From contig CAXXST010000001.1 in NCBI GenBank assembly GCA_963674855.2, forward strand, positions 307,252 through 339,251: DNA of 32,000 nucleotides. Reading direction: 5' to 3'. The notes under the pieces were generated by a model that was not told the origin of the DNA, did not search any database, and saw only the letters and a program-made list of their open reading frames with translations. The stretch is from Dehalococcoidales bacterium. GTDB taxonomy: Bacteria; Chloroflexota; Dehalococcoidia; Dehalococcoidales; G020351185. A program made the position numbers and the translations under genes. Positions within the stretch are counted from its first letter, which is position 1. Every line of letters starts with the position of its first letter. This document shows, in pieces, positions 1 through 21,107 of this stretch.

Positions 1-180
1 TGTTTGCAGCTTTGTCCGTATCTTGCCATATCTTTTGACGAAGAAAAACAGGTCTGCCGTGTAAACGAAGCCCTGTGCAAGGGCTGCGGCACCTGTGTCG
101 CCGGCTGTTTCTCAGATGCCATAAGCCTCAGCCACTACACCAACGAACAGCTTATGGCGCAGCTTGAGGGTATGCTGTAA
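1..180 (+). CDS. 3' end of an HdrA-like Fe-S flavoprotein (heterodisulfide reductase subunit A family); 5' part lies outside the window
   Basis: Frame 1 is open from base 1 to TAA at 178-180. The translation CLQLCPYLAISFDEEKQVCRVNEALCKGCGTCVAGCFSDAISLSHYTNEQLMAQLEGML carries CX3CP and CX2CX2CX3C ferredoxin-type motifs, as at HdrA C-termini. It sits directly upstream of MetF/MetV and opposite an MvhD operon. Confidence 0.5.
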   Translation, partial: CLQLCPYLAISFDEEKQVCRVNEALCKGCGTCVAGCFSDAISLSHYTNEQLMAQLEGML

Positions 181-203
181 CAATATCTTATCAGCCTTAA
201 AAC

Positions 204-268
204 TTGACTTGAAAGGCGTTTTCCCTATAAGGTATTAACCTATTTCTTAAAAACATCCAGTTTATAAT
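204..268 (+). promoter_or_regulatory. candidate promoter region for the metF-metV gene (two alternative -10 elements)
   Basis: TTGACT (204-209), a 16-nt spacer, then TATAAG (226-231). A perfect TATAAT also lies at 263-268 but has no good -35. GAGG Shine-Dalgarno at 279-282 precedes ATG 288. Confidence 0.3.
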
Positions 269-287
269 AACAGATAGCGAGGCAACT

Positions 288-1853
288 ATGGAGAAAGAGA
301 CCAATATACTCAGGGAAGCGATAACCAGCCCCGATACCTTTTGTGTTACCTGGGAACAGATTGCAGGGCGCGGCGCAGTTGAAAAACAACAGACAGAAAT
401 ATTCAGCAATGCCGAACTGGCGGCTAAAGGCGGCAGGATTCACGGCATAAGCGTTACCGATAACCCCAGCGGCAATCCGGCTATCGCCAGCGAAATGTTG
501 TGCGCCGAGGTTAAGAAGCTGGGTATAGAGCCACTGGTGCATTTCGCGTTGAGGGATAAAAACCGCAACGAGGTTGAAAGCCTTCTTTACGGGCTGGCGG
601 CTGCCAACGTGCGCAACATATTGTTTCTTTCAGGGGATTATCCGGCAGAAGGCGGCTTCGCAGGCAAAGCCAAGCCGGTATTTGATATAGATCCCACCCA
701 CGCTTGCCAGCTTGCCGCAGAAATGAACAAGGGGCTGGAATACCAGGCGATGGGCAAGACAGTTGCCCTGTCGCCCACCGATTTCTTTGCCGGCGTTGCC
801 GTTTCACCCTTCAAGCAAACGGAAGCAGAGCTTATGGGGCAGTATTACAAGCTGGACAAGAAGATAAAAGGCGGCGCTTCTTTCGTCATCAGTCAGATTG
901 GCTATGATGCCAGAAAAATGCAGGAGCTTATCCAGTGGCTGAAGCTATATGGAAATAATACGCCCGCGCTGGCGAATATATATGTTTTGAGCTATCCGCC
1001 GGCAAGGCTTATGAACAGCAACCAGATACCTGGCTGCGTGGTTACCGAAGAACTGCTGGCTAAAGTGGCGGAAGAAAGAAAGGCCGAAGATAAGGGCAGG
1101 AATGCCCGTATGCTGCGGGCAGCCAAGATGTATGCCATAACAAAGGGTATGGGTTATGCCGGCGCGCATATCGGCGGACACGGGCTGAAATACGAAGCGG
1201 TTGAATATATAATAGAAAAGGGCGAAGAATTGCTGCCGAAATGGCAGGAACTGCTGCCTGAATTTAATCATCCGCAGAAAGACGGCTTCTATTTCTTCAA
1301 GAAGGATGAAAAAACGGGCTTGAATCTGGAAGAACCATCGGAAAAACTTTCAAAGCCCAGAAAACAGATAAGATATCGTATTTACCGGATGGTGCATGGC
1401 GCATTCTTTGAGCCGGACCATCCTTTCTTCGGTATGTATAAAATGCTGTCTCGCTTCGCAGACAGGCATCGCTGGGCAGAGAGACTGCTTGAATTTGTTG
1501 AGCACCTGGCAAAGGTGGCTTTATTCTCTTGCCAGAACTGCGGAGACTGCGCCCTCTTTGACGCTGCCTATATCTGCCCGATGTCCCAATGTCCCAAGAG
1601 CCAGCGGCTGGGACCCTGCGGCGGCAGTTATGAAGGCTGGTGCGAGGTTTACCCCGGCAAGCAGAAATGCGTCTGGGTGAGGGCTTATGACAGGCTGCGT
1701 GCGTATCGTGAAGAGGATAAAATCGGCGCTTATACCATTCCGCCGTGCAACTGGGAATTATGGCAGACGTCTTCCTGGCTCAATTTCTATCTGGGGAGAG
1801 ACCACACCGCCAAGAGGCTGGGCGTTAAGCCGCCGGTAAAGAAAGAAAAGTAG
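288..1853 (+). CDS. metF: methylenetetrahydrofolate reductase fused to a C-terminal MetV-type Cys-rich (MTHFR_C) domain
   Basis: 521-aa ORF. The N-terminal ~300 aa is MTHFR-like (ISVTDNPSGNP, ILFLSGDYP, VAVSPF). The C-terminal part contains CQNCGDCALFDAAYICPMSQCPKSQRLGPCGG, typical of the small MetV subunit or the MTHFR C-terminal domain of acetogen-type enzymes. Confidence 0.85.
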   Translation: MEKETNILREAITSPDTFCVTWEQIAGRGAVEKQQTEIFSNAELAAKGGRIHGISVTDNPSGNPAIASEMLCAEVKKLGIEPLVHFALRDKNRNEVESLLYGLAAANVRNILFLSGDYPAEGGFAGKAKPVFDIDPTHACQLAAEMNKGLEYQAMGKTVALSPTDFFAGVAVSPFKQTEAELMGQYYKLDKKIKGGASFVISQIGYDARKMQELIQWLKLYGNNTPALANIYVLSYPPARLMNSNQIPGCVVTEELLAKVAEERKAEDKGRNARMLRAAKMYAITKGMGYAGAHIGGHGLKYEAVEYIIEKGEELLPKWQELLPEFNHPQKDGFYFFKKDEKTGLNLEEPSEKLSKPRKQIRYRIYRMVHGAFFEPDHPFFGMYKMLSRFADRHRWAERLLEFVEHLAKVALFSCQNCGDCALFDAAYICPMSQCPKSQRLGPCGGSYEGWCEVYPGKQKCVWVRAYDRLRAYREEDKIGAYTIPPCNWELWQTSSWLNFYLGRDHTAKRLGVKPPVKKEK

Positions 1854-1859
1854 CCGTCT

Positions 1860-2720
1860 TTAGTATTCGCTGGAGACGAAACCCTTTATCTGGGCGTAGC
1901 TGAAAACCGGTCCGTCCTTGCAGACGTAAACATCGCCGATGTTGCAGCGTCCGCACTTGCCGATGCCGCACTTCATGCGCTTTTCCAGCGTGGTAATCAT
2001 CTGCTGCGGTGTGAAACCAAGCTTATCAAGCACCGGGAAGGTGAAGCGTATCATAACCGGCGGTCCGCAGACGATAGCCACGCTGTCCTTGGCTGAAGGG
2101 GCTGCCTGTTCCAGCACCTGCGGCACAAAACCAACCTTGCCCTTCCAGTTCTTGTCTTCCCTGTCTATGGTTATAACGGCGTTCAGGCTTTTATCTTTTT
2201 GCCACGCCTCAAGGTCATAGTCAAAACAAAGGTCCTGCGGGCTGCGCGCGCCGTAGATTATATCTATATTCTTGTAGTCCTTGCGGTTATCTATGGCGTT
2301 CCAGATAAGAGAGCGCAGCGGCGCCAGCCCGATGCCGCCGGCAACAAAAACAAGATTTTTACCTTTTAATTCTTCCAGCGGAAAGCTGTTGCCGAAGGGT
2401 CCGCGAAAGCCTATCTCGGCGCCAACCGGCAGGCGGTGCAAGGCTTCTGTTACCTTGCCGACGCGCTTGACGGCGAACTCAAGGTGGTCTTTGCGGGTGG
2501 GGCTGGAAGATATGCAGAAGGTGGCTTCACCCACGCCGAAAACGGAATATTCGCCGAACTGCCCGGATTCAAAGCCGAACTCTTTTTTGAGCTTTTCATC
2601 CTTGAAGTTGAAGTGAAACGTCCGCGTATCCGGCGTTTCCTCTATAATCTTCTCTATTACGGCTATATGCGGCAGGTAGGCATTGCCCTCTGCCAGAAAA
2701 TCCTTATTATTATTTGGCAT
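1860..2720 (-). CDS. FAD/NAD(P)-binding [2Fe-2S] oxidoreductase subunit (FlxA / HydG / AsrB family)
   Basis: 286-aa ORF with an FNR-like fold: nucleotide-binding LVFVAGGIGLAPLRS and the C-terminal cluster motif CGIGKCGRCNIGDVYVCKDGP. Its start overlaps the stop of the upstream gene by 11 nt. Confidence 0.8.
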   Translation of the reverse strand: MPNNNKDFLAEGNAYLPHIAVIEKIIEETPDTRTFHFNFKDEKLKKEFGFESGQFGEYSVFGVGEATFCISSSPTRKDHLEFAVKRVGKVTEALHRLPVGAEIGFRGPFGNSFPLEELKGKNLVFVAGGIGLAPLRSLIWNAIDNRKDYKNIDIIYGARSPQDLCFDYDLEAWQKDKSLNAVITIDREDKNWKGKVGFVPQVLEQAAPSAKDSVAIVCGPPVMIRFTFPVLDKLGFTPQQMITTLEKRMKCGIGKCGRCNIGDVYVCKDGPVFSYAQIKGFVSSEY

Positions 2721-3753
2721 CCTTTACCTCGCTGGACGGCAGGCTCTCAAGCGTCTGCGTTATATCCCAGTTCACCGGGCACAGGCGGATGCAGCGTCCG
2801 CAGCCGGTACAGGCGATTTCATTAAAAAGCGTCGGGTAAACCTGGTATTTATGGCAGACGCGGTTTCTGACACGTTTCCACTTTTCAGAGCGCGGGTTTT
2901 CCACCGGCATCTTGGTATAGACGGAGAAGGAGCAGCTATCCGGGCTGCGGTATCGGGCGCCGCCTTCCGCCGTAACCTCGTCGTTGATGTCAAAGCAGTA
3001 GCAGGTAGGGCACAGCAGGGTGCAGATGCCGCAGCTTACGCACTTGGCGGCGATATCCTGCCAGAAGGATTCGTCGTCAAAGCACTGCCGCAGTTTTTCG
3101 CTGATACCTTTTACGTCTATTTTGCGGCTTATCTTTTGTATGGCAGCCTGACGGTTGTTCTCAGCTTCAGCTTTGTCATCATCGGTAGCTTCCAGAAGGC
3201 TTTTGGTATTCTGCATAAGCTCTTCGCCGATTTTGCTGACAGATTCAACCAGGAAGCCATCTTTAATATCGGTTAACATAATATCCATACCGCTGGAATC
3301 AGAAGGGCTGCTGCCCAGTGATGTGCAGAAGCAGCAGGCATAGGGGTCTTTGCAGCTTAAGCCGACCAGTATAATATTTTGGCGGCGGTTGAGGTAATAG
3401 GGGTCCTGATAGTCATCCTTAAAAGTCATATCCAACAGGTTAAATGCTTTGGCGTCGCATGGGCGGATGCCGAAAACAAGCTGCTTTTTTTCATCCGGCG
3501 GTGGTGTTTCCAGCTTGTAGCCTTCTTCATTTTTAGTATAGGAAAACATCTTCTCTACCAGTGGCAACAAGATGCTCTTGGGTGGGGTAACGGTATTGCG
3601 GTACCAGTCTGTAAAAGAGGCGTCCTTGCCGTTCCACTCGGTAAAGGCGGCAGCGCCGCTTTCACGTGAGGGCGCCAGCACTTTAAAGCCCTGCTTCCAT
3701 TCCTCAAGCAGTTTGCCTAAATCCTGTTTGCCTATCTTTTTTATAATACTCAT
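2710..3753 (-). CDS. 4Fe-4S dicluster subunit (FlxB / HydB / AsrA family)
   Basis: 347-aa ORF with two CX2CX2CX3CP motifs (CVSCGICTLLCP, CTGCGRCIRLCP) and an N-terminal AsrA/HydB-like region. One nucleotide separates it from the upstream gene. Confidence 0.8.
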   Translation of the reverse strand: MSIIKKIGKQDLGKLLEEWKQGFKVLAPSRESGAAAFTEWNGKDASFTDWYRNTVTPPKSILLPLVEKMFSYTKNEEGYKLETPPPDEKKQLVFGIRPCDAKAFNLLDMTFKDDYQDPYYLNRRQNIILVGLSCKDPYACCFCTSLGSSPSDSSGMDIMLTDIKDGFLVESVSKIGEELMQNTKSLLEATDDDKAEAENNRQAAIQKISRKIDVKGISEKLRQCFDDESFWQDIAAKCVSCGICTLLCPTCYCFDINDEVTAEGGARYRSPDSCSFSVYTKMPVENPRSEKWKRVRNRVCHKYQVYPTLFNEIACTGCGRCIRLCPVNWDITQTLESLPSSEVKDAK

Positions 3754-3754
3754 A

Positions 3755-4714
3755 TTAAAGGAATAAGTCCTCTGCCTCTTCGGATTCGTAAGACGCCATC
3801 AGCGGCGCGTCCTCTTTATCCGTGCCGGCTTTATAATCAAACACATCATCAACGATGTCATACATCTCTTTGGTCAGGCTTCGCAGCGGGATGTTCACCG
3901 GGCAGGCTCTTTCACATTCGCCGCAATCTGTGCATCTGCCGGCAAGATGGATGCTTCTGGTAATCTGAAATAATAGATTGTCTTGCCAGTGGGGAGTTGG
4001 CGAAAGCCACTGCGGCTTGTTTTCCTCTGCGAAACAGCGTGTGCAAAAGCAGGCGGGGCAGACGCTGCGGCAGGCGTAGCAGCGGATACAGTGGCTGAAC
4101 TGTTCCTGCCAGTAAAGCCACCTTTCGGCGGGCAGTTTTTCTTTCAATTCATTCAGTTTATCCTGTGAAACAGGCGGCTTGGGCTTAATCGCCTCGCCGA
4201 TTAGAACATCATATTCGGTGGGGGTGGGCATATCGCAGGCAAGGCAGTTATCAAACAGAACCTCGGTGGTGGCAAACTCTTTTTTACCGCCGTTAAAAGA
4301 GACCAGAACCTTATCACCATTCAGGCTGATATTGTCTATTTTGTCCTTGTCTATGCCGGTCAGTTTTTCAACCTTGGCAAGGTCTATAATGCCGTTGCAG
4401 GGGATACCCAGTATGACGACATCTTCTCTTTTTACCTTGTTGTCCTGTATCAGGCTGACGATAGAACGGCTGTCGCAGCCCTTGGCAACAATTGCCGTTT
4501 TGCCTTTAAGTCCGGTTAAAAAATTGCTTAGATTATTGACGATAAAGGGGTTTATAACCAACCGTTCGGCGGCGTCTGTGTCAGAGGTTATCAGGGGGGT
4601 GACGGTGAAACGCAGGCTGCCTTTTTCAAAGCCGATAATACGCTGCACCTTGCCCTGTTTGAGCAGGTTTTTTGCCTCTTCAATCAACTTATTGCAGTTG
4701 TTTTCTTTTATCAT
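3755..4714 (-). CDS. Fe-S cluster protein, FlxC-like (second HydB-related subunit)
   Basis: 319-aa ORF with CIRCYACRSVCPAC and CTDCGECERACPV ferredoxin motifs. Its start overlaps the mvhD stop by 26 nt, suggesting an operon. Confidence 0.7.
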   Translation of the reverse strand: MIKENNCNKLIEEAKNLLKQGKVQRIIGFEKGSLRFTVTPLITSDTDAAERLVINPFIVNNLSNFLTGLKGKTAIVAKGCDSRSIVSLIQDNKVKREDVVILGIPCNGIIDLAKVEKLTGIDKDKIDNISLNGDKVLVSFNGGKKEFATTEVLFDNCLACDMPTPTEYDVLIGEAIKPKPPVSQDKLNELKEKLPAERWLYWQEQFSHCIRCYACRSVCPACFCTRCFAEENKPQWLSPTPHWQDNLLFQITRSIHLAGRCTDCGECERACPVNIPLRSLTKEMYDIVDDVFDYKAGTDKEDAPLMASYESEEAEDLFL

Positions 4715-5132
4715 CTGTGAACATCTCGTTGGGACCGATTTCTTTAATTTCGTCTATCATTTTGGTGATAACCTCTACGAACTTGCCGCCCTCGGAAGCC
4801 GACACCCAGCTTGCCTGCACGCGGCGAGGGTCAACGCCCATGCTTTCCAGCAGCTTCTTGGTGATGGCAAAGCGGCGGCGGTTGCGATAGTTACCCGTCT
4901 GGTAGTGGCAGTCTCCCGGGTGGCAGCCTGAAACCAGCACGCCGTCAAAACCCAGACGCAGGGCTTTCAATACAAACAACGGGTCAACCCTGCCGGAGCA
5001 GGGGACTTTGATTATGCGTATATTGGCAGGATATTTCTTACGGCTGATGCCGGCGAGGTCTGCGCCGGCGTAGCTGCACCATTTGCACAGAAAGCCAACT
5101 ATTCTGGGTTCCCAGTCAGTATTTTCTTCCAT
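4689..5132 (-). CDS. mvhD: MvhD / FlxD-type (methyl-viologen-reducing hydrogenase delta subunit family) [2Fe-2S] protein
   Basis: The conserved MvhD core is present: IVGFLCKWCSYAGADLAG, KVPCSGRVD, VSGCHPGDCHY. The ATG at 5130-5132 (MEENTDWEPR) is preferred over the ORF-track start at 5198, because the extra 22 aa are hydrophobic and unlike MvhD, and AAGGAAA precedes it. Confidence 0.85.
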   Translation of the reverse strand: MEENTDWEPRIVGFLCKWCSYAGADLAGISRKKYPANIRIIKVPCSGRVDPLFVLKALRLGFDGVLVSGCHPGDCHYQTGNYRNRRRFAITKKLLESMGVDPRRVQASWVSASEGGKFVEVITKMIDEIKEIGPNEMFTDDKRKQLQ

Positions 5133-5265
5133 TATTTCCTTAAAAATGCAGGCATAAAATAACACTAAACTATACCATAACAGGGGGCTTTGCCTCAAAG
5201 TTTGCGCCGCTTTTGCCGCTTTGCCACTATTTCCGATAGCCTGTATACTTCTTATTGAAAAAGCT

Positions 5266-6318
5266 ATGAAAACAGGTGATTTTGATTATTTTCTGCCGCC
5301 GCGGCTTATCGCCCAGACGCCGCTTGAATGCAGGGACAAGTCCCGCCTTATGCTGGTTAACCGCAGGGACGGCTCTGTAGAACACAGCGTACTTTCCAGC
5401 CTTGGTGATTACCTGCAAAAGGGAGATGTGCTGGTCTTTAACGACAGCCGCGTAATACCGGCGCGTCTTAAGGGCAGAAAAAAGGGCAGCGGAGGCAGGG
5501 TGGAGGTGCTGCTGCTGCGGCATATCGGCAACGGCACATGGGAGGCGCTGCTTAAACCGGGCAAGCGGTTTGGCGTCGGCGCAGAAATAGAAATTACCGG
5601 CGATAATAATGCAGACGGGAAGTATGATATAACAGCGGAGATTACCGGCGTTAAGGAAGGCGGCATAAGGCTGGTGCGTTTTTCTGATGAAGAAAGACTA
5701 TTGGCTTTGGGCAGTATGCCGCTGCCGCCCTATATAAAAACGCCGCTTCTGGAACAGGAACGTTACCAGACGGTCTATGCCGCCGAACCGGGCAGCGCCG
5801 CCGCCCCCACCGCCGGGCTGCACTTTACGCCGGAACTTATAGAAAGCCTGCGGCAGAAGGGGGTTGAATGCCTGTTTGTTACGCTGCACATCGGGCTGGA
5901 TACCTTCCGTCCGGTCAAGGAGGAAGACCCTGAAAAACATCCCATCCATCGGGAATACGGTGTAGTAAATAAAGAAACGGCTGACAGGCTGAATCTGGCA
6001 AAAGCAGAGGGCAGAAGGATAATCTGCGTTGGCACCACCGCGGTAAGGCTGCTGGAATATGCGGCTAAAGAAATAGATGAAGAAAAAGCAGATGAAGGTA
6101 TAAAGCCCTTCAGCGGCTGGGTGGATCTGTTCATCCTGCCGGGCTATGGTTTCCGTATGGCGGACGGGATGCTTACCAACTTCCACCTGCCGCGCTCCAC
6201 GCTGCTGATGATGGTCTCGGCTTTTGCAGGGCAGGAATTAATTAAAGAGGCTTACAACGCAGCCATTGAAGAAAAATATCGTTTTTACAGCTTCGGTGAC
6301 TGTATGTTGATTATTTAA
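5266..6318 (+). CDS. queA: S-adenosylmethionine:tRNA ribosyltransferase-isomerase
   Basis: Motifs MKTGDFDYFLPPRLIAQTPLE, GDVLVFNDSRVIPARL, AAPTAGLHFT, CVGTTAVRLLE. The ATG at 5266 gives a typical ~350-aa QueA; the ORF-track TTG at 5221 adds an atypical hydrophobic leader. Confidence 0.9.
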   Translation: MKTGDFDYFLPPRLIAQTPLECRDKSRLMLVNRRDGSVEHSVLSSLGDYLQKGDVLVFNDSRVIPARLKGRKKGSGGRVEVLLLRHIGNGTWEALLKPGKRFGVGAEIEITGDNNADGKYDITAEITGVKEGGIRLVRFSDEERLLALGSMPLPPYIKTPLLEQERYQTVYAAEPGSAAAPTAGLHFTPELIESLRQKGVECLFVTLHIGLDTFRPVKEEDPEKHPIHREYGVVNKETADRLNLAKAEGRRIICVGTTAVRLLEYAAKEIDEEKADEGIKPFSGWVDLFILPGYGFRMADGMLTNFHLPRSTLLMMVSAFAGQELIKEAYNAAIEEKYRFYSFGDCMLII

Positions 6319-6379: not shown

Positions 6380-7687
6380 ATGTATTACGACAGGCTTAAA
6401 CTTGCAATAGACTGGCTGCGCCGGCAGCCTTTTGCGGTCTTTGTGTTTCTGCATGCCATACTCCTGCTGGGCATCTTTTCCGTCTTTGACTATAACGTAA
6501 TGGGGCATGGGCTTGAGTATTCAATCGCCGATAGAATACTGGGCGGCGAGATACCTTACCAGGGGGGTTTTCTGGTTGAATACCCGCCGCTGGCTCTTTT
6601 CAGCTTCCTGCTGCCGGCATTAGTATCCTCTACACTGGCTGCCTATGGCTTTCTGTTTGCCCTGCAGATATTCCTGCTGGACATAGTGATTCTTTATATA
6701 ATGTGGAAGCTTGCCAGCCGTCTTAAGCTGAATGTGTGGTATGTTCTGGGCGCTTATACTCTTTGCCTGGCTGCCGCCGGCACGATTGTAACCGGGCGTT
6801 TTGATATGCTGCCGACGGCATTGGTTATGGTTGCCCTGTATGCCTTCATAAATGGAAAAAACAAGACCGCCTGGGCGGTGCTGGCGCTGGGCTTGAGCAC
6901 CAAGCTCTACCCCGTAATAATAGCGCCGCTTTTTGCGCTATACCTGTTGCGGCAAAAGCAGTACCGGCAACTGGCAATGGGCATCGCTGTTTTTGCGGTC
7001 GTTGTTCTGGCGCTTAATCTGCCCTGGGTAATTATGGACGCCGAAGGCTACTGGTATTCACTGGAATACCACATGCTGCGCGGGTTGCATTCCGAAAGCA
7101 GCTACGCCTCGGTAATTCTGCTGGGGCAGTCTATGGGGCTGACACAGGTTGACGGCGCCGCTTTAACCTATGGCTCCTGGAATATTACCTCTCCGTTGGC
7201 GGATACGCTGGCTAAATCATCTTTCTATATAACCGCCGTCTTTCTGTTATCCGCCTATGGATTATATGCGCGGCAGCTGTGGCAGAAACCGAAAGATGAA
7301 GGCGAAGGGCTGGCGCTGGACGACAATGCGATAAGGCAGTTGCTGCTGTTTTCACTGCTGGCGATTCTTATAATGCTGCTTGCCAGCAAGGTCTTTTCGC
7401 CGCAGTATCTGGTATGGATTTGCCCGCTGATACCGCTGGTTATGCGGCGCGGGCTTTACAGTTCGCTGATGATGTTTCTGGTGGCTGCCGCTATAAGCCA
7501 GTATATCTACCCGCATCACTACCTGGATTTTGAGTGGGCCACCTTCGGCACGCAATACGGATACCAGAATATGATAGCGCTGCTTTTTATACGCAATCTG
7601 CTTATACTGGCTATAACGATACAGGCTTTTGTTATGGCTTTCGGCTCCCGTTCGCCAAAGAAGATTATTCCCAGCGGAACAGCCTGA
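6380..7687 (+). CDS. polytopic integral membrane protein, GT-C/DUF2029-like glycosyltransferase candidate
   Basis: 435-aa ORF with at least 10 hydrophobic segments. The overall layout resembles polyprenol-phosphate-dependent glycosyltransferases; the family assignment is tentative. Its 3' end overlaps the convergent ABC permease by 23 nt. Confidence 0.65.
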   Translation: MYYDRLKLAIDWLRRQPFAVFVFLHAILLLGIFSVFDYNVMGHGLEYSIADRILGGEIPYQGGFLVEYPPLALFSFLLPALVSSTLAAYGFLFALQIFLLDIVILYIMWKLASRLKLNVWYVLGAYTLCLAAAGTIVTGRFDMLPTALVMVALYAFINGKNKTAWAVLALGLSTKLYPVIIAPLFALYLLRQKQYRQLAMGIAVFAVVVLALNLPWVIMDAEGYWYSLEYHMLRGLHSESSYASVILLGQSMGLTQVDGAALTYGSWNITSPLADTLAKSSFYITAVFLLSAYGLYARQLWQKPKDEGEGLALDDNAIRQLLLFSLLAILIMLLASKVFSPQYLVWICPLIPLVMRRGLYSSLMMFLVAAAISQYIYPHHYLDFEWATFGTQYGYQNMIALLFIRNLLILAITIQAFVMAFGSRSPKKIIPSGTA

Positions 7688-12527: not shown

Positions 12528-12531
12528 GCTA

Positions 12532-13632
12532 CTAAATATCGCTATCGTGCTTTGGTAGATGTTGGAATACACTAACAAAGTCTTCTATAGTGATATTTCT
12601 TTTAAGAATATCTTGAAGTAAGGCTTTCCTATGCCTATCAAATTGAACAATGTTCATAGGGGATGCCCTCGAAGCAATGAAATAGTTTGTTGGAGCCAGA
12701 TAGCGAATCCTTAATTCGGGATTGACTAATGGTATTATTTTCCCATTACGATACATAGAACCATCATTATATTCTTGACGGCTGACAAGCTCTCCATTGC
12801 CATTAATAGCATACTCCTCGTCTTTTGCATCTGTGTTATATAAACCTGTAGGTATATCCTTCTCGCATTCTAGATATATAAAGTATTGCCAGTATAATTC
12901 TGGGCGATAAACAATAAGCCTCTTGGGAACTAGTTCACTATAATGTATTAGGATTCTTTTTTTATCAAGCCTTCTATAGCGGCCAATATTGAAAAGGCCG
13001 CGCATAGTATATAGATTGAGGGGCGGGTAGAATCCTTTAAACTCCAATGGTTCTTGTAACACGGTGTTTAATCTTTCTATTATCTCTTCCTTATTTTCTA
13101 TACTGTGAATGCCTCTGATACCTGGGAATGCTTCAGCAACACGGTCTTCAAAAAATGCCGTAGGATATAAATAAGCTCTTTGATTGCTATCATCTTCTTT
13201 TATGGCTGATGTATCGTTCTCTTGTTTAATTACTGATATAAGTTCATTAACCACAAATTCTATGCCCTTAGAAGCATCTGCGGCATAAAGGTCAGTTAAG
13301 GTTGGATACTTATGTTTTATATCTTCTACATCTAACCCCAAATATATGGGCAATATTTTCTTTTCACCAGGCTTTTCAAGAGCTGATAAACCTGCCAATT
13401 CCCTTTCCGTCCATTGCTTCTCGAAAAAAGCTTTACTAAATATGACAATTCCATATTTTGATTGTAATAAACCTTCGCTAATCTTCTTTAATAGACTATC
13501 GCCGATTTTGAGAGTAAATTCATCATACCAGATATTGAATCCCCTTTTCTGAAGTCTTTCCGCTAGTTCTCGGACAAACTTGTCTTTATCTTCACTGGCA
13601 TGACATATAAAAGCATCATAAGTGTAATTCAT
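12532..13632 (-). CDS. TIR-domain protein with uncharacterised C-terminal domain of about 220 aa
   Basis: The N-terminus (YDAFICHASEDKDKFVRELAERLQKRGFNIWYDEFTLKIGDSL...IVIFSKAFFEKQWTERELAGL) is a canonical TIR domain with the W-x3-E-L catalytic-Glu motif. Residues ~150-366 match nothing I can name. Hand counts on 60-nt samples give 35-40% GC, against ~52% in the adjacent PRTase gene. The start is ATG 13632 or TTG 13644. Confidence 0.85.
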   Translation of the reverse strand: MNYTYDAFICHASEDKDKFVRELAERLQKRGFNIWYDEFTLKIGDSLLKKISEGLLQSKYGIVIFSKAFFEKQWTERELAGLSALEKPGEKKILPIYLGLDVEDIKHKYPTLTDLYAADASKGIEFVVNELISVIKQENDTSAIKEDDSNQRAYLYPTAFFEDRVAEAFPGIRGIHSIENKEEIIERLNTVLQEPLEFKGFYPPLNLYTMRGLFNIGRYRRLDKKRILIHYSELVPKRLIVYRPELYWQYFIYLECEKDIPTGLYNTDAKDEEYAINGNGELVSRQEYNDGSMYRNGKIIPLVNPELRIRYLAPTNYFIASRASPMNIVQFDRHRKALLQDILKRNITIEDFVSVFQHLPKHDSDI

Positions 13633-13670
13633 GTTATTTAACAACCATTTATTGCTCTCTTAGTTAATCT

Positions 13671-19061: not shown

Positions 19062-19064
19062 TGG

Positions 19065-21107
19065 TTATATAAGACCGCTGAAATCCACCAGCACCGGCGC
19101 AATTACCAATGCTATTATTGATATCAGCTTAATCATTATATTCAGCGAAGGACCGGAAGTGTCTTTCATCGGGTCTCCCACAGTATCGCCGACGACAGCC
19201 GCCTTGTGGGAATCTGAACCCTTGCCGCCGTAAGCCCCGGTCTCAATATATTTCTTGGCGTTGTCCCAGGAACCGCCGGCGTTGGAAAAGGTTATCGCCA
19301 GTATAAAGCCGGTGATTATAGCTCCCACCAGGAAGCCGCCCAGAGCCAGAGGTCCTAAAAGCAAGCCGACAACAACCGGCGATGCGATGGTGATTATGCC
19401 GGGTACAATCATCTGCTTGATGGAATCGCGTGCGCAGATGTCCACGCAGCGGGCATAATCCGGCTTGCCTGTGCCGTCCATGATACCTTTGATTTCACGG
19501 AACTGGCGGCGGACTTCATTGACGATAGAAAAGCTGGTCTTGCTGACGGCATTCAGCGTTAAAGCGCAGAAAAGCGCCGGCAGCAAAGCCCCCAGGAACA
19601 ACCCGGCGATAACACGCGGGTCAAGCAGGCTGATATCTGCCATTTCAATACCCACCGCCTGAACGTATGAAAGCAGCAGCGCCATGGCTGTCAGCCCGGC
19701 GGCGCCGATGGCAAAACCCTTGCCGGTGGCGGCGGTGGTGTTACCCAGCGAATCAAGGGCGTCTGTCCTGTCCCTTATCTCCGGGGGCATACCTGCCATT
19801 TCTACGATACCGCCTGCGTTATCGGCAACTGGTCCATAAGCGTCTGTGGCGTCCTGGATACCTAGTGTCGCCAGCATGCCCACGCCGGCGATAGCCACGC
19901 CGTAAACATCAGCAAATTGGTGCGCCGCCACGATGGCGATGGCTATTATGATTACAGGCGGCACAGTACTCATAAGTCCGTTAGCGAAGCCGCTGACAAT
20001 ATTCGTGCCTGCGCCTGTCTGGGATGCCTCTGCTATATTCAGGGTTGGTTTATTGGTATAAGAAGTGAAGTAATTGGTGCTTTCGCCGATAAGAACACCG
20101 GCAACCAGCCCCACAAGTATTGCCCAGAAGATGTTTATGTTGGCGTCCATGAAATAGACTGCCAGGAAAGAAAATCCCGCCGTCAGGATAGAGGCGGCGA
20201 AGGTGCCGCGCCGCAGGGCGTTCAGCAGGGCTTCCATCTTCAGCTTTTCACTGACCCTGACCATAAAGATACCGATAATAGAAGCCAGAATGCCTCCGGC
20301 GGCGACAAGTATCGGTATAAACCAGGCGGTTTCCAGATCTCCCACCAGGGATTTGTCCAGGGTGGTAGAGAAGACGGCTATCATTCCCAGCGTCATGGTG
20401 GCGATGATTGAATCTACATAAGATTCAAATAAATCTGCGCCCATACCGGCAACATCACCTACGTTATCGCCAACAAAGTCTGCGATAACGGCGGCGTTGC
20501 GTGGGTCGTCTTCGGGGATGCCTTTTTCAACCTTGCCGACGATATCGGCGCCGGTGTCAGCCGCCTTTGTGAAGATACCTCCGCCGACACGGGCGAAAAT
20601 GGCTACCGAAGAAGCGCCGAAGCCAAAGCCGGGGATAATCTTCAAAAAGTCTTCATTGCCGTTGAAGACGAGGTAAAGTATGCTTAAGCCGAGGATGCCG
20701 ATACCGACGACACTCAGCCCCATTACCGCCCCGCCGCGGAAGGAAACCCGCAGCCCTTGATTGAGGCTTTTCTGGGCGGCGGCTGCCGTGCGTGAGTTGG
20801 AGCGGATGGCGATGCTCATGCCGACGAAGCCGGCAAAGCCGGAACAAACGGCGCCGAAAACGAAAGCCAGCGCCACGAACCAGCCGAGTGCGGGGACTAC
20901 CCCCAGTATGACGGTAACCACCGCTACGAATATCGCCAGTATGCGGTATTCCCGTCCCAGGAAGGCTAACGCCCCCTCCTTGATTGCGCTTGATATTTCT
21001 ACCACTTTCTTGGAACCCTGGGGCTGTTTCAGCACGTAATATGCCAGAAAAGCAGCCACAACTATTCCCAGAACTCCGGATAGAATTGCGATTAGTATTG
21101 GGTTCAA
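19065..21107 (-). CDS. hppA: membrane-bound ion-translocating pyrophosphatase (K+-dependent type)
   Basis: 680 aa with [40 protein letters not shown] and [10 protein letters not shown]. Ala rather than Lys in GNTTAA is the established signature of K+-dependent enzymes. TTG start with AAGGAG 9 nt upstream, immediately after the stop of the upstream gene. Confidence 0.92.

Follow-up and report, generated by a model that had tools for sequence, protein, structure and literature searches.

At the start of a 32,000-nucleotide stretch of DNA (the window, G000:C1:307252-339251) from an uncultured member of Dehalococcoidales (Dehalococcoidia), whose 1.53-Mb genome is 100% complete, we observe part of a gene cluster that may encode all of HdrABC-FlxABCD, with the methylenetetrahydrofolate (methylene-THF) reductase (MTHFR) of the Wood-Ljungdahl methyl branch, encoded next to it, as the high-potential partner of the complex instead of the DsrC of Desulfovibrio. 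We favor this interpretation tentatively, as a strong possibility that stops just short of being probable. It is based on the subunit set, the cofactor motifs, the bifurcation signature, the genomic coupling and the fact that DsrC was not found. Gene order, and gene order only, suggests that the MTHFR step is the electron sink of Hdr-Flx. Here, G000 stands for the host genome, other G numbers for genomes of relatives and L numbers for retrieved stretches.

The cluster consists of a divergent surE, then hdrC-hdrB-hdrA-metF/V converging on flxA-flxB-flxC-flxD, then queA (Table 1), and all of its parts (hdrCBA, mvhD, the metV part and metF) lie inside about 10 kb. A sequence-only reading of the window had recognized the end of an hdrA at its first bases, which proved to be the C-terminal ferredoxin domain of a long HdrA, and had supposed that hdrB and hdrC might lie upstream of base 1, where both were indeed found on the contig. 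The minus-strand operon that it described, with an MvhD protein first and a FAD/NAD(P)-binding [2Fe-2S] protein, was reproduced by the open reading frames (ORFs) down to the exact junctions (26-nt overlap between flxD and flxC, 1-nt gap between flxC and flxB, 11-nt overlap between flxB and flxA), and the last protein has the FAD/NAD domains and the [2Fe-2S] tail according to Pfam.

Table 1 Features of the hdr-metF/V-flx locus.
Feature	Position	Strand	Description
hdrC	G000:C1:302650-303207		Outside the window, upstream
hdrB	G000:C1:303204-304103		Outside the window, upstream; two CCG domains, all cysteines present
hdrA, 3' end	window 1-180	+	C-terminal ferredoxin domain; whole gene G000:C1:304087-307431, 1114 aa, HdrL type
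Spacer	window 181-287		AT-rich, 107 nt
metF/V	window 288-1853	+	Fusion, 521 aa; MTHFR + PF12225 (Pfam)
flxA	window 1860-2720	-	FAD/NAD(P)H-binding, FNR type, C-terminal [2Fe-2S] motif
flxB	window 2710-3753	-	347 aa; HydB/AsrA-like, 2x[4Fe-4S]; Fer4_22
flxC	window 3755-4714	-	319 aa; FdhB/FrhB-like, 2x[4Fe-4S]; FrhB_FdhB_C
flxD	window 4689-5132	-	ATG at 5132; MvhD-type [2Fe-2S] adaptor; MvhD/FlpD E 2e-54
queA	window 5221-6318	+	Conserved flank marker (surE on the other side); outside the system

The stop codons of metF/V and flxA are 6 nt apart. Three further convergent pairs of the window (7665-7687, 12528-12531 and 19062-19064) overlap or are separated by 3-4 nt, and the metF/V-flxA junction is therefore nothing special; we dropped tail-to-tail tightness as evidence of a link, such packing being common in the window. 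The spacer between hdrA and metF/V holds a TTGACT-N16-TATAAG look-alike that falls under the threshold of the promoter scan, and an internal promoter for metF/V in this spacer is possible from its sequence. The promoter and terminator scan at the junctions gave nothing exceeding shuffled sequence, and aligning the spacer to those of relatives added no information.

The HdrA half carries the features of a bifurcating enzyme. Residues E821 and K872 of HdrA align with E356 and K409 of 5ODC_A, a pair reported as the bifurcation signature of the HdrA flavin site (PMC9430772), and this signature is kept in 33/33 neighboring HdrAs. The protein has one HdrA-type flavin domain, and a GltD/Nfn-like NAD(P)H module with FAD and 2x[4Fe-4S] (aa ~290-755) is inserted in its internal ferredoxin domain. 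This insert has its nearest counterparts in the NADP(H)-binding, non-bifurcating, electron-transferring FAD modules of NfnABC-type enzymes and contains the GGGNAA and YRRS motifs, by which it is probably an NADP(H)-type site.

The Flx half was assigned from domains, gene order and context. The sequence-only reading had taken both middle proteins for HydB/AsrA-like, which stands for the one of 347 aa, whereas the one of 319 aa (FlxC) is FdhB/FrhB-like, has methanogen FdhB as its best PDB matches and is homologous to the FdhB of methanogen Fdh-Hdr complexes. FlxA and FlxB find their best NCBIfam and PDB matches in HydG/AsrB and HydB/AsrA, as would be expected if the minus-strand genes encoded an AsrABC sulfite reductase or a group 3b sulfhydrogenase, but their scores are far under the curated cut-offs (AsrA 144 vs 323; AsrB 214 vs 289; HydB 146 vs 750; HydG 220 vs 650), and the operon is headed by MvhD and FdhB-like genes. 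Moreover, no siroheme domain or siroheme sulfite reductase was found in the host genome, and the only true NiFe hydrogenase large subunit sits away from flx, beside its own small subunit. The searches turned up no DsrC and no siroheme sulfite reductase, so the AsrAB reading fails; we rejected both identities, which we consider highly improbable, and the choice of a Flx-type module in the sequence-only reading holds.

A conserved Asp of FlxA, which we take to mark NADH preference in the FNR family, is shared with NADH-specific relatives and not with the NADPH-specific γ subunit of sulfhydrogenase, a sequence hint that FlxA may prefer NADH. The locus thus has two pyridine-nucleotide sites, FlxA and the HdrA insert, probably with different specificities. 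The proposal that Flx, HdrA and MetFV form one link survives as a gene-order tie to MTHFR; Flx as the missing NAD(P)H input does not, since HdrA brings a pyridine-nucleotide module of its own, just as the Moorella protein does, and Flx is therefore a second site.

The reductase itself combines an MTHFR TIM barrel, a helical linker and an 8-Cys Fe-S domain. PF02219 scores above its cut-off and the barrel has TM(target) of ~0.8 against Thermus thermophilus and Escherichia coli MetF. E23, T57, H85, G116-D117 and Q203 are invariant; going by the motifs, we take the Glu, Gly-Asp and Gln to correspond to E28, D120 and Q183 of E. coli MetF. The MetF-MetV fusion proposed in the earlier reading is therefore real in its MTHFR and PF12225 domains, but only the C-terminal cysteine-rich half of MetV is present (aa 402-490, 8 invariant Cys). 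The fusion does not reach the type I MetF profile TIGR00676 (47.8 vs 293.7 bits), and its closest homologs come from Dehalococcoidia metagenome-assembled genomes (MAGs). An N-terminal receiver-like domain is found on many other MetF-MetV fusions of Chloroflexota, Acidobacteriota and Desulfobacterota-like MAGs (L023:8269-10317 and many of L057-L130), and these often have response regulators, kinase-like genes and a further metF as neighbors.

The genomic coupling comes from the comparison of related loci. The complete layout from surE to queA is kept in G005 and G020, and up to the contig end in L056; hdr and flx are convergent in G000 and in most of 60 orthologous flx loci within the order. 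Opposite flxA, within 1.5 kb (the slot), we found hdrA at 29 of these loci, an MTHFR at 17, and another gene or the contig end at 14. The 17 MTHFR-facing loci are spread over at least 10 families, and their MTHFRs are of three types, namely the fusion, a MetVF-type MetF (seven families) and one type I MetF passing TIGR00676, which are 24-30% identical to each other and form separate clades. From the MetF tree, built with FastTree and flagged for long branches, and a quick, unrooted Flx tree, we conclude that the MetF lineages are distinct and that the slot changed more than once, but draw no sequence of events. Loci facing hdrA and loci facing MetVF intermingle on the Flx tree, which requires repeated changes of the slot.

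The Wood-Ljungdahl operon of G000 (fhs, folD, acsD, carbon monoxide dehydrogenase, acsB, acsC, acsE) ends without metF. The same holds after acsE in all seven genomes examined that have an MTHFR at flx, whereas metF is present in the operon of 7/9 genomes with hdrA at flx; the nominal Fisher p of 0.003 for this contrast (0/7 vs 7/9) is overstated because kin genomes are not independent. A hydrogenase-metV-metF block even occurs in both places: G032 and G030 have it in the Wood-Ljungdahl operon, and in G033, G067 and G216 it faces flxA. Because metF is found either in the Wood-Ljungdahl operon or at flx, these data suggest that the slot MTHFR is the MTHFR of the pathway. A functional link between MTHFR and the Hdr-Flx locus is likely, given that unrelated MTHFRs occupy the slot and that metF is absent from the Wood-Ljungdahl operon when an MTHFR faces flx.

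Other redox modules were seen next to MTHFR genes. In L040, L132, L138, L204 and L218, a [NiFe]-hydrogenase small/large subunit pair lies directly upstream of metV-metF, with the block placed either in the Wood-Ljungdahl operon or opposite flxA, and hydrogenase-metV-metF is a candidate H2-linked MTHFR. Four congeners are without hdr and flx at the locus and have etfB-etfA-hdrF in the flx position; in L017 (4461-8737), L018, L019 and L020, etfB, a ferredoxin-fused etfA and a membrane NarI-type HdrF face a MetF-V fusion, a candidate quinone-linked MTHFR.

Several observations weigh against a joint Hdr-Flx-MTHFR enzyme. The genes are split over two opposite predicted transcripts, and the layout seen most often (29/60) has hdrA opposite flxA and no MTHFR. 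The fusion stands between hdr and flx in only 3/80 fusion loci; it is alone between surE and queA in G040, G022, G015 and G059, of which HdrA was not found in the first three (96-99% complete), FlxB was not found in any, and G015 and G022 gave no match to acetyl-CoA synthase. In G025, a type I NAD(P)H MetF without Fe-S domain occupies the slot behind an intact hdrCBA; such a MetF needs no Fe-S partner, so no Hdr wiring is required there. G000 has a second mvhD-metV-metF cluster, and HdrB retains every CCG cysteine, as a working disulfide reductase would. Finally, bifurcation by type IV MTHFRs was never demonstrated, and ferredoxin was not used in Moorella (PMC8760232, PMC13391211).

Much of this would fit two separate enzymes co-located for regulation because both serve the redox balance of the Wood-Ljungdahl pathway, with Hdr-Flx as an ordinary bifurcating NADH:ferredoxin/disulfide module that acts on a thiol carrier and MetF-V working alone as a type II-like enzyme with ferredoxin or another carrier. 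We regard this as a serious alternative, possible rather than probable. It would account for the fusion occurring in near-complete genomes that gave no HdrA or Flx matches, for the type I MetF of G025, for the intact HdrB and for hdrA converging on flxA as the conserved core, and the host genome does encode other CCG proteins and a TusA/DsrE-like operon. A thiol partner for HdrB is nevertheless hard to find. A search for DsrC (PF04358) gave no match in G000 or in four relatives, with a positive E. coli control, and GcvH gave only a weak 58-aa match in G000, with no full-length protein. The TusA/DsrK-like operon does not follow the distribution of Hdr-Flx: it was not found in G005 and G020, which have the full cluster, and is present in congeners without the cluster. 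None of these candidates (DsrC, GcvH, TusA/DsrK-like) is a conserved companion of the cluster, and we rejected them as HdrB partners. Co-regulation alone also explains less well the recurring Etf-HdrF, hydrogenase and NuoEFG-like modules beside slot MTHFRs. We also rejected an HdrB-less complex, which loci with hdrA facing flx but without hdrBC might have indicated, as hdrB lies elsewhere, behind hdrA and hdrC, in five such genomes. A complex prediction for HdrB, HdrC and MetF-V scored 0.00, gave no answer and was weighed neither way. The operon mentioned above has the order arsR-dsrE2-tusA-dsrM-like-dsrK-like (L173:8087-11234, G000:C2:408086-411233); DsrC and DsrAB were not found in the genome.

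If Hdr-Flx and MTHFR do work together, homology to the Mvh/Fdh-Hdr structures would have electrons enter from NADH at FlxA (FAD, [2Fe-2S]) and pass through FlxB, FlxC and FlxD/MvhD to the FAD of HdrA. The high-potential branch would then run through HdrC, HdrB, the MetV domain and the MetF flavin to methylene-THF (-200 mV), and the low-potential branch via the inserted ferredoxin domain of HdrA, which carries the NADP(H)-type GltD/Nfn module; as this module is spliced into the ferredoxin domain, the terminal low-potential carrier would be NADP+ or ferredoxin. A physical association of such subunits has a precedent in Sporomusa, where MetVF pulls down with HdrA, HdrB and MvhD (PMC9430772), and NADP as second acceptor was earlier floated for marine Chloroflexi (PMC5736913).

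The reaction could be bifurcating (reductive) or confurcating (reverse), and we keep both directions. By simple energetics, reduction of ferredoxin and methylene-THF by NADH is marginal or uphill (-23 plus +25 to +35 kJ), that of methylene-THF and NADP+ by NADH is near equilibrium at cellular potentials (-15 +17 kJ), and that of ferredoxin and methylene-THF by NADPH is favorable. The reverse confurcation of methyl-THF and reduced ferredoxin to 2 NADH is favorable as well, at about -12 kJ with ferredoxin at -500 mV.

The same proteins might also be wired with a membrane quinone as third carrier (confurcation of NADH and menaquinol), or simply pass electrons from NAD(P)H to MetF without bifurcation. 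A quinone-linked type IV MTHFR has been proposed, recently for Moorella (PMC13391211, PMC9430772); a membrane NarI-type HdrF with EtfBA takes the slot in congeners, and menA-like and ubiE-like ORFs occur at C2:99807-101429 (identified by eye). The locus itself has no membrane subunit and its bifurcation signature is fully conserved; we consider this alternative quite unlikely.

Both halves of the locus are known systems, of which it appears to be a hybrid. The type IV MTHFR HdrCBA-MvhD-MetVF is described for Moorella thermoacetica and Sporomusa ovata (Mock 2014 as described in PMC8760232, PMC9430772) and for the marine Chloroflexi DscP3 (PMC5736913). Like it, our locus assembles hdrC-hdrB-hdrA, MvhD, MetF and a MetV Fe-S domain in a Wood-Ljungdahl host, and, as in Moorella, HdrA has a GltD-type NAD(P)H insert (PMC9430772) and the E/K signature. 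Unlike it, the locus has MetF and the C-terminal MetV half on a single polypeptide, whose MetF belongs to a distant lineage (30% identity to the MetVF type), and its HdrA contains one HdrA-type flavin domain instead of two. MvhD is on the opposite strand and comes with FlxCBA, hence with a second pyridine-nucleotide site that the Moorella operon does not have. With this opposite-strand mvhD and the 107-nt gap before metF/V, the locus is not a single transcriptional unit.

The second system, FlxABCD-HdrABC of Desulfovibrio vulgaris (Ramos 2015 as cited in PMC4759654, PMC6470260; 'Hdr-IFO' in PMC5736913), shares the seven-subunit set (HdrABC, an MvhD-like adaptor, two Fe-S proteins and a FAD/NAD [2Fe-2S] protein), and the bifurcating HdrA flavin signature is present here. 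It differs in being a single co-directional operon, whereas here two convergent units have an MTHFR between them, DsrC and DsrAB were not found, and HdrA is of the long HdrL type. As the single-operon feature of both systems and the DsrC feature of Flx-Hdr fail, the locus is not a plain member of either. HdrL of Desulfobacterium autotrophicum (PMC2702500) is likewise an MvhD-associated HdrA fused to a GltD-like NAD(P)H module; in our case, hdrCB, flxCBA and an MTHFR accompany it and a sulfite reductase was not found in the genome. We found no paper on Flx, Hdr and MetF at one locus; most subscription journals lay outside the search, and absence is unproven.

The third electron carrier of type IV MTHFRs has been unknown since 2014 and was still called so in 2026 (PMC13391211); how much ATP acetogenesis and reverse Wood-Ljungdahl metabolism yield depends on it. 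Unrelated MTHFRs repeatedly facing flxA and replacing the Wood-Ljungdahl metF across Dehalococcoidales point to Flx as partner. A more specific version of our interpretation, which we find doubtful as a whole, would be an eight-protein soluble MTHFR with NADH bound at FlxA and NADP(H) at the HdrA insert, bifurcating NADH to methylene-THF and NADP+ or operating in reverse. In this version, the MvhD of type IV MTHFRs more generally, otherwise an orphan, would have its missing partner in FlxCBA, which would dock on it. A separate cluster of Hdr-Flx type is encoded in Moorella (PMC5736913); if FlxCBA is the missing partner, this could explain why the enriched complex does not couple NADH to methylene-THF. 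The idea is testable, also in culturable organisms, and the locus hints at what Hdr-Flx may do in bacteria that have no DsrC.

The rest of the host genome encodes Rnf, NAD-linked and periplasmic formate dehydrogenases, one NiFe hydrogenase and a complex-I-like operon (several assigned by eye). The latter operon has no nuoEFG, encodes a NuoI that carries a fused GltD/Nfn-like NAD(P)H module (L174:5930-7813, G000:C1:505929-507812) and is possibly an NADPH-input complex I. In the second mvhD-metV-metF cluster (L171:3181-10789, G000:C2:87180-94788; also L185), three split glutamate-synthase genes follow (FMN, FMN, GATase+GXGXG), an order repeated in G120. Two selenocysteine tRNAs are predicted by ARAGORN (G000:C1:33861-33955 and C2:104610-104703). 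Further along the window, on the minus strand, are genes for a TIR-domain protein, perhaps related to defense (12532-13644), and a membrane H+/Na+ pyrophosphatase (19065-21107).

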